64,000 bases of DNA from Plasmodiophora brassicae. Taxonomy: Eukaryota. Each line of letters opens with the position of its first letter. The first letter of the stretch is position 1. The stretch spans positions 682,001 through 746,000 of the forward strand of contig CP145411.1 of assembly GCA_036867785.1 (NCBI GenBank), given 5' to 3'. Shown here piece by piece: positions 29,097-31,530 of this stretch. The notes beneath the pieces are model-generated. The model was not told where the DNA came from. It saw only the letters and a program-made list of their open reading frames with translations, and did no database searches. The position numbers and the translations under genes were made by a program.

Positions 29097-31530
29097 TTAG
29101 AAACAGCCTTCGGAGGAGGACGCAGCGAAGGCCTGCGTGGAGCCCGTGACGCATAAGGTCGCCACTGGGCATCGAGCACGGCGGCGAAGGTCCATGCTGG
29201 CGATATCCATTTTGTTCTAGACGTAAACCGTTAGCAGCAGGGGTAGCGGCGCGCAGCGTCCCAGTACGGAATACATCGACAATGATGAACTGCAGTGAGG
29301 ACACGAACTCGGCGAGGCGCTGGTGCGCAGACGACGACTCGCCCGAGTCAATTGACGCCAGCGAAGTCAGAATGTCCTGCATGATCGTTCCTGAGAGCGT
29401 GCACGACAGCAGCTCCTGCAATCGGCGACTCAGAACCCATGCACGTTACGCAAGGGGCACGACCTTCTCGTCGCCTTACATTCCTCAGCCGGTTCAGTGC
29501 CAGAACAGGGATGGTACGAGGGCGAAGGGCATCCGATAGTGACGACACAGTTTTCAGCAGGCGCCTGGAATCGATTATCCGAGCAACCGGTGTGATGCTC
29601 GAGCCTGTCCGAGGCGTCAGCCGGTGAAGGATGCGGGACGAGTTAGAGACACGTACCGGTCCCGAATTGCAAAGGACAGATAAACCCGCACAACGATGAG
29701 ATACGCATGGAATACTGGCCGTAACCCATCAGACTCAGAAGCGGTTCAAGGCATTGAAGGACGCTGGCAGGAATGAAATCGGACCTTGTCAGCCCTGATC
29801 AGAGTGGTCAATAGGCAGCCCAATCCAATATCTGCACAGCGCTCTTGCGCGTACCATAGCCGACATCCTGACAAACCAGATCGATCAGTTCTACAGGGTC
29901 AACAGAGCCACCGGCAGCGTCGTAGGTCATATGCGATTTGCTTGCAGTGGCAAGCAGTTCACGTGTCGACCTTTCGGGGGAAAGAACGACGAACTTAATG
30001 ATGTCTCTGATACGTGGCGAGTCAGATGATGACGGTCGGCGACTGGTACTCGGTACAACCGATGTTGACGAACTAGGCCAAGAGCGCTGGCCAGTGAAGG
30101 GAAAGGCCGATCGAACGATAGCGTGAATATGAGCTGAATGCGACTAAAGTCGCGCATGGTCGTGATCAGCTGCGTCAGCTCTGCCACCGCCGTCTAACCC
30201 ATGATTATTGCAGGGCTGTCTCACGAAACCGTGGTGCCAACTCGTTACCTCCTCTTCGCCCCGGACAAGGTGGTACCGAACCCCAGGAAATATACGGCCT
30301 ATCATGAATCGAGGCTATTCAATGATTGCGATCGGATCGCCATCCTGTGCCCACCTTTCAGCAAGGCCGAATTGGGTATGTGAGCAAAGTCGATCAGTCG
30401 GTCGTAAGCCAGGTCGACAATAATCAGGCATCGACGCGTCACTTGCTCAATATGTAGCAATAGAGTGTTCAACTGAGCAACGTGACTGAACGACGATAAA
30501 GCACCTGCGGGGGATTAGACATAGATGAATTCTCTGCAAGCGACACGAAACGAACCGCCTTTGATGTCCAGAATGAAAGACAGTTCCGATGGAAACAGGT
30601 TCTCGATCTTCCTCAAGCGCATGTCGACCAACGACGTGGACAGGAGCTGACCAGACCCAGTCGTAACCTGGAACCCATGTGAGACATCATCCCAATAACC
30701 ACCAACCCCTCAAACGTACGTGCAACTCAACAACGAGCGGGAGGCTCGACCGGTTCGACTTGATTTCACTGGCCAGGGCGTCCAGATCAGCATCGAAGGG
30801 ATCGCCAGGTACGCCCGCTGCAAACGTAATCGCCTCCCTGAAGAACGTCGCAGACCGACAGTACTCGGTCGACAGCAACCCGTGCACCGGGCAGTTCCTC
30901 TCCAGGTATACGGTGTCGCCTCTCTGAACCACCTAACCCGGGTCCTCTCATTAGGTCCCCGACCGACAAACGTCGCGGGGGTGCCACGCTTACAATGGCG
31001 GGTACTGGATCGTACCCTCGCCGTTCCGTAATCGAACAAGGTACGCATAGCGTCCGGGTGTGGTACAGGATGGCGTTCTCACCCACGACGTCAACCTCGG
31101 ACCGTTCAGCACCCGATGTTCGGTCGCGTTGGTAGCAGGCCATGCAGGCCTAATCAGCATCTGGATAAATCTGCAATACGCGATGCCCCGGGGGAGAGCG
31201 TTACCCGATACGTCTCTGGATGCGCCGACCCCTTCTCGGACACATCGATCCGCATACTCGAGCACGCATGGCAGAACACGCGCCCACAGAACCGGCAATG
31301 GCTATTCGCTTGCTCAGACCTGCACCCGTATACGTACGGTAGCAACGACGGTGCCTACTGCTGCAATGTACCCGCCGTCAGCAGCGTCGAACCGAATTGC
31401 GAAACAGACTGCGGGGTACCTTTCGCCTGAACAACGTGAACGCCGCTCTGCACGCATGGCAGTTGTCAGCCTGGGAGTCGGGTACCCACTTGAAATCCAG
31501 CGAGCGTCGCTGATGGAGGCGCCCCTCCAT
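29097..31530 (-). CDS. FYVE zinc finger fused to a degenerate Tes/GDGT-MAS (MJ0619)-like radical-SAM-fold protein
   Basis: WVPDSQADNCHAC..FTLFRRKHHCRFCGRVFCHACS..R|ACMACY (FYVE); TRTLCVPC..VPAIVVQRGDTVYLERNCPVHG (rubredoxin-like Tes N-terminus); DFIP, SLCG, KMDIASMDLRRRARC (Tes C-terminal motifs). Confidence 0.75.

Follow-up and report, generated by a model that had tools for sequence, protein, structure and literature searches.

A transcript-supported two-nucleotide exon that completes the FYVE motif of a Plasmodiophora brassicae gene

One-base exons have been described in the Arabidopsis APC11 gene (Guo & Liu 2015, PMC4674806), in APC11 and VPS55 of plants (Yu et al. 2022, PMC8831610) and in the CYP621A P450 genes of Fusarium (Nelson & Syed 2026, PMC12940212). 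Exons of 2–5 bp found computationally in Arabidopsis, Drosophila and humans are cited in the last of these papers. Here, we describe an exon consisting of the two nucleotides CA in a gene for a predicted FYVE zinc finger protein, located on the minus strand of a 64,000-nucleotide stretch of the Plasmodiophora brassicae genome (assembly GCA_036867785.1, contig CP145411.1, positions 682,001 to 746,000). This stretch is called the window below, and all coordinates are positions within it. The exon had been proposed in an earlier note made from the letters of the window alone. We find that the CA at 31360–31359 is very probably a genuine internal exon between two ordinary spliceosomal introns, and it was present in every spliced contig that we saw. 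It represents a transcript-supported two-base exon in a rhizarian, one-base exons being already known from plants and Fusarium.

The Fusarium CYP621A exon resembles the P. brassicae exon in being an ultra-short exon between short canonical introns (AG-N-GT) and inside a conserved protein motif, in being needed for the phases of its neighboring exons, in having been missed by automatic annotation, and in having been confirmed from public RNA data. The Fusarium case involves one base, a fungus and the PKG motif of a P450, whereas here there are two bases, a rhizarian protist and the R(R/K)HHCR motif of a FYVE finger. In addition, the Fusarium exon is conserved in 20 orthologues, whereas ours is known from the P. 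brassicae locus and from one relative, represented by a contig of the run X15 described below. The APC11 and VPS55 exons of plants are likewise constitutive exons of fewer than 3 nucleotides (nt) between two introns, but their introns are longer, and they were validated by reverse transcription polymerase chain reaction and reporter constructs. VPS55 has isoforms with and without its exon, whereas no such pair was seen among the P. brassicae contigs. The ratchet points of Drosophila (10.1101/006163, PMC8605326) share the juxtaposition of an acceptor and a donor and the two successive splicing reactions, but nothing of them is kept in the mRNA and their introns are very long, whereas here two bases are kept and the introns are shorter than 60 nt. 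The CA is not a recursive splice site, that is, a zero-nucleotide exon, since its two letters are kept in the contigs. A literature search found no paper on micro-exons in Plasmodiophora (the sole co-mention was in a paper on annotation software), no relevant title for 2-nt exons and, among eight papers mentioning Plasmodiophora together with FYVE, no title about this gene.

The exon upstream of the CA ends in ...TTC AGG CGA AAG at 31420 and the exon downstream of it begins with C CAT TGC CGG at 31301, leaving a gap of 118 nt. The gap divides into a 59-nt GT-AG intron, the letters CA and a 57-nt GT-AG intron. Intron 1 (31361–31419, GTACCC...TTGCAG) has a branch-like CTGAC at 31381–31377, within GCTGAC, the A of which lies 17 nt from the 3' end of the intron. 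Intron 2 (31302–31358, GTAGGC...GAATAG) has a branch-like CTGAG at 31317–31313, with its A 12 nt from the 3' end. Each of the two introns thereby has its own donor (GTACCC and GTAGGC), branch-like motif and acceptor (CAG and TAG). The exon between them (31359–31360) reads TG on the plus strand and supplies codon positions 1 and 2 of the first histidine of RRKHHCR. When the sequence was re-read, all coordinates and lengths of this parse, which the earlier note had put forward, proved right.

The parse is also the only one of its type. Of the eight CA dinucleotides in the gap, only the one at 31360–31359 is preceded by AG and followed by GT, and this AG-CA-GT (31362–31357) is the sole AG-NN-GT of any kind in the gap. 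An AGCAGT with both halves 51–64 nt long appeared in 147 of 20,000 dinucleotide-preserving shuffles of the gap, and the layout alone is therefore unlikely to have arisen by chance (about 0.7%). Lengths of 51–64 nt are found for the gene's 11 other introns, so that 59 and 57 nt are typical lengths, in agreement with the earlier note, whereas a single intron of 118 nt would be about twice as long as any other. With the CA included, a frame of 566 codons stays open; without it, a 118-nt intron shifts the frame and leads to a stop at codon 84.

We compared the region 30700–32000 with four coded sequencing runs (X1, X3, X16 and X15). The runs X1, X3 and X16 belong to three studies under three organism labels, and were used as assembled contigs, not as raw reads. 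All three lacked introns 1 and 2 and joined 31301 to 31420 with exactly two extra letters in between, TG on the plus strand, corresponding to CA, at depths of 125.4 (X1), 65.1 (X16) and 15.5 (X3). In the X16 record, 31204–31301 corresponds to positions 1549–1646 and 31420–31542 to positions 1649–1771. The same contigs also lacked introns 3 (31150–31204) and 4 (30933–30993), as precise skips of 55 and 61 nt, and they did not differ from the window at a single letter over all four exons compared. They extend 1179 nt past 30718, and one of the spliced contigs terminates in sequencing adapter at 31542. Because the GT-AG bounded stretches are precisely missing, we infer that the X1, X3 and X16 contigs derive from spliced RNA. 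The 21-nt junction predicted in the earlier note is not contiguous in the window on either strand, but is present in the contigs of the three runs.

Contigs bearing the CA might come from another copy of the gene, such as a paralogue, a processed DNA copy or another strain, rather than from splicing at this locus, and the fact that the RNA nature of the runs is only guessed leaves some room for this. However, no letter of the contigs differs from the window over four exons, while exactly the introns are missing, one contig ends in adapter, and three studies agree. A processed copy, moreover, would itself descend from an mRNA that had been spliced with the CA. We therefore consider an origin from another copy very improbable.

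An explanation that dispenses with the exon altogether is a single intron of 118 or 107 nt, in which case the protein would start downstream or contain RRKQANSHCR and would have no functional FYVE finger. There is indeed an in-frame acceptor at 31312 (CTGAG/CAAGCG), and in the public gene models the protein either begins at a methionine in exon 3 or includes exon 1 in a different frame. However, the junction AAG/CAAGCG that results from this acceptor, which the earlier note had named as the one that would speak against the exon, was looked for and found in none of the three spliced runs, and the 118-nt junction was equally absent from all three. The 118-nt form, in addition, gives the frame shift and early stop described above, and the motif is contiguous in the orthologue. 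Both single-intron forms were rejected, and we regard this explanation as the least credible of those considered, with hardly any chance of being correct.

The earlier note had also suggested that skipping of the exon could act as an on/off switch. In such a scheme, splicing at some life stages would run from the 5' site of intron 1 directly to the 3' site of intron 2, the frame would shift and the message would be silenced or decay. The logic is possible, since skipping does shift the frame, as the note had said, and ends in the stop at codon 84, and the 1-nt exon of plant VPS55 exists in isoforms with and without it (PMC8831610). The three spliced runs contained only the included form, which counts little in either direction, as contigs drop rare variants and cannot show rare isoforms. 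The completed motif recurs in the orthologue and in 14 among the 150 listed relatives, a conservation that fits constitutive use. The proposed switch thus found no support in our data, and we consider it improbable.

Several points weigh against the interpretation of the CA as an exon. No run was recorded as RNA, and all 20 runs that contain the region are of guessed or unknown kind. The use of contigs means that read counts, minor isoforms, intermediates and the order of intron removal are not visible. The CTGAG of intron 2 is a weak branch-like motif, even under a loose pattern. Finally, a scan of metagenome contigs for orthologous DNA, using an alignment of the public proteins P0153 and P0154, gave 292 pattern matches, none of which was confirmed. 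The runs X1, X3 and X16 had zero cover in 31316–31403, but this was not taken as evidence against intron retention or skipping. With these points taken into account, a genuine CA exon is still the reading that we hold to be very probable.

In X3, one contig reads through intron 3 (31121–31233) at a depth of 19.9, compared to 10.2 for the spliced form. This contig reflects either retention of intron 3 or the presence of DNA or pre-mRNA in the run.

The fourth run, X15, contained an unspliced, genome-like contig from a relative that is 95–99% alike. Across introns 1 and 2, it has six substitutions and one insertion, whereas no change affects the AG-CA-GT core, either branch-like motif or the coding sequence of exons 1 and 3. 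Over 30700–32000, X15 shows 22 listed substitutions, and insertions of 6 and 3 bases are found upstream, behind 31598 and 31622. The public protein P0001, for its part, differs from the translation of the window at 8 of 513 residues. Judging from the sequences of X15 and P0001, isolates of P. brassicae differ noticeably at this locus.

FYVE zinc fingers are recognized by the motifs WxxD, R(R/K)HHCR and RVC and by eight zinc-binding cysteines. FYVE and PX domains bind phosphatidylinositol 3-phosphate (PI3P); in the FYVE motif, both histidines contribute to binding. In the gene described here, the CA together with the first C of exon 3 encodes the first of these histidines, restoring RRKHHCR. 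The rebuilt N-terminus then has WVPD, RRKHHCR (only with the CA), RAC and the CxxC pairs CHAC, CRFC, CHAC and CMAC. Once the CA is read in, the protein thus shares WxxD, R(R/K)HHCR and four CxxC pairs with the FYVE finger, the difference being that the last motif is RAC instead of RVC.

The Pfam FYVE profile (PF01363) was scored on the two exon pieces separately. The 37-residue piece from exon 1 matched profile positions 1–24 with an E-value of 9.6e-06 and 26.1 bits, below the cut-off of 27.8, and the 32-residue piece from exon 3 matched positions 26–51 with an E-value of 4.2e-07 and 30.4 bits, above the cut-off. Exactly one profile position is therefore missing between the two pieces, and this is the histidine encoded by CA plus C. 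Based on these features, the N-terminal FYVE finger would be expected to bind PI3P.

An orthologue from Spongospora subterranea, P0154, has 557 residues and is named a FYVE-type domain protein by one source. It reads FTLFRRKHHCRFCGRVFC, which includes RRKHHCR and is identical to the rebuilt P. brassicae protein, ungapped. P0154 matches the FYVE profile with 67.8 bits over positions 1–65, as well as the solved FYVE domains of ZFYVE16 (3t7l), EEA1 (1joc), Vps27 (1vfy) and Hrs (1dvp). From its CRZ accession and the organism name, P0154 appears to be derived from a transcript; Spongospora transcripts were assembled de novo in the study PMC4471660. The central claim of the earlier note, that the CA completes R(R/K)HHCR, is thus borne out by the contigs of three of three runs, by the 566-codon frame, by the one-position gap in the Pfam match and by the Spongospora orthologue.

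The note had further stated that gene predictors miss exons of this size, and this was indeed the case. The public models that we examined were the three P. brassicae proteins of one 90% cluster, none of which contains RRKHHCR. The cluster is that of a P. brassicae hypothetical protein to which exon 5 is 100% identical. Two of the models, of 513 residues each, begin at a methionine within exon 3, and one of these, P0153, is an exact suffix of the rebuilt 566-residue protein. The third, P0152 (542 residues), starts at an out-of-frame ATG in exon 1 and bridges to HCRFCG via two serines. For this bridge, three bases are required in place of the two found in the RNA, and the corresponding intron would have an end other than AG in the window. 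P0152 probably arose as an artefact when transcripts were fitted around the 2-nt exon; possibly, the model was guided by transcripts, and three bases rather than two were taken close to the acceptor.

With the 513-residue model as query, a full HMMER search yielded 198 relatives with E-values up to 0.001. An N-terminal [RK][RK]HHCR was found in at least 14 of them, namely in 14 among the 150 listed of the 198. When 10 relatives were scanned with Pfam, three had a FYVE domain (P0154, P0008 and P0010) and five had a PX domain (P0011, P0051, P0065, P0071 and P0086), always at the N-terminal end. The members of the family (P0002–P0151) are about 450–600 residues long, with a zinc ribbon of the HMPTM type, a conserved body to which no Pfam family is assigned, and a cysteine-rich C-terminus, and their N-terminal head is a FYVE domain, a PX domain or none that is recognizable. 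The function of the family appears to be undescribed. Comparison of these sequences suggests that the family seems to need a phosphoinositide-targeting head, and the two-base exon would then be under selection.

How the spliceosome deals with such an exon can be envisaged from the arrangement of the sites. If each intron of about 60 nt is recognized as a unit (intron definition), the length of the exon between two introns would matter little. Only 2 nt separate the acceptor of intron 1 from the donor of intron 2, and these two sites would presumably not be engaged at once, so that the introns would be removed sequentially. Either order of removal should work. Since AG is the end of exon 1 as well as of intron 1, the second donor is preceded by AGCA whether or not intron 1 has already been removed, and the order need not matter. 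Inclusion of the CA puts the whole 566-codon frame in register. A fold of the RNA over 31292–31430 that might bring the sites together was not evident, as 71 of 200 shuffles folded as well as the real sequence (z = −0.22).

An origin of the two introns by duplication of a single one was also considered and rejected. The comparison of intron 1 with intron 2 ranked 37th among the 78 pairs of introns in the gene, and 724 of 2000 shuffles scored as well.

On the minus strand, the rebuilt coding sequence with the CA starts with the ATG at 31530, ends with the TAA at 29099–29097 and comprises 1701 nt in 14 exons, encoding 566 residues. Exon 1 (31420–31564) consists of a 5' untranslated region (31564–31531) followed by 37 codons from the ATG at 31530–31528 to the AAG at 31422–31420, and encodes the WVPD, CHAC and RRK of the FYVE finger. 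Over 31420–31564, the X1 contig has no letters that differ from the window, and its first ATG is that at 31530. Exon 3 (31205–31301, 97 nt) starts with the C that ends the histidine codon and continues with HCRFCGRVFCHACSS...ETYR. It is followed by intron 3 (55 nt, GTAACG...GATTAG) and by exon 4 (30994–31149), which encodes ACMAC, containing the final CxxC of the FYVE finger, as well as the first half of a zinc ribbon of the HMPTM type. Intron 4 (61 nt, GTAAGC...GGTTAG) separates it from exon 5 (30720–30932), which encodes the second half of the ribbon (PF23545, E-value 1.4e-05). The remainder of the gene (29097–30719), likewise on the minus strand, was laid out by mapping the public 513-residue model onto the window, and contains 9 further exons and 9 introns of 51–64 nt. 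All 13 introns are GT-AG, with lengths of 59, 57, 55, 61, 52, 51, 56, 55, 53, 60, 52, 64 and 58 nt. Genes of P. brassicae have on average 4 introns of 60 bp each, according to the genome study (PMC4471660).

The HMPTM-type zinc ribbon (PF23545) lies downstream of the FYVE finger and is matched by residues 45–94 of P0001. A Pfam search with five open pieces further downstream found no family. From these domain matches, the product is read as an N-terminal FYVE finger, then the zinc ribbon and finally a body that is conserved but uncharacterised. It differs from known FYVE proteins in that the domain is carried by a family of protist proteins in which, apart from the HMPTM-type ribbon, the body matches no Pfam family.

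Two frames on the same strand flank the gene. Upstream, at 31794–31979, an ATG-started frame of about 62 residues encodes a hydrophobic stretch followed by RRRRRK and stops at a GT donor-like site. The upstream area is covered by low-depth unspliced contigs only, at 31586–31772 in X1 (depth 3) and at 31741–31971 in X16 (depth 2.3). This frame could be a separate small gene or represent upstream transcription. Downstream, at about 28300–28900, there is an open frame starting with MSKPNGTADSRPEHIQVGVRVRPL, the translation of which, read by eye, resembles the beginning of a kinesin motor domain.

The CA exon of P. brassicae is among the shortest exons with transcript support, and it shows that a spliceosome handling introns of about 55–60 nt can use an acceptor and a donor that are separated by just two bases. 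There is a practical side as well: all three public models of this gene, which belongs to an important crop pathogen, the agent of clubroot, lose the N-terminal FYVE finger, so that the databases do not show what is likely the membrane-targeting module of the protein. An intron of double length between neighboring exons of discordant phase may serve as a simple flag for such cases in annotation pipelines. One might go further and propose that one- and two-base exons are a regular, hidden feature of intron-defining protists with tiny introns, and that the CA is perhaps also skipped at some stage, shutting off a PI3P-targeted protein. We put this forward as a speculation that is probably not correct. 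If it were true, many truncated or frame-shifted models in such protist genomes would hide whole domains. For the family itself, relatives carry a FYVE or PX domain at the same place, and this suggests that phosphoinositide targeting may be central to this uncharacterised protist family.
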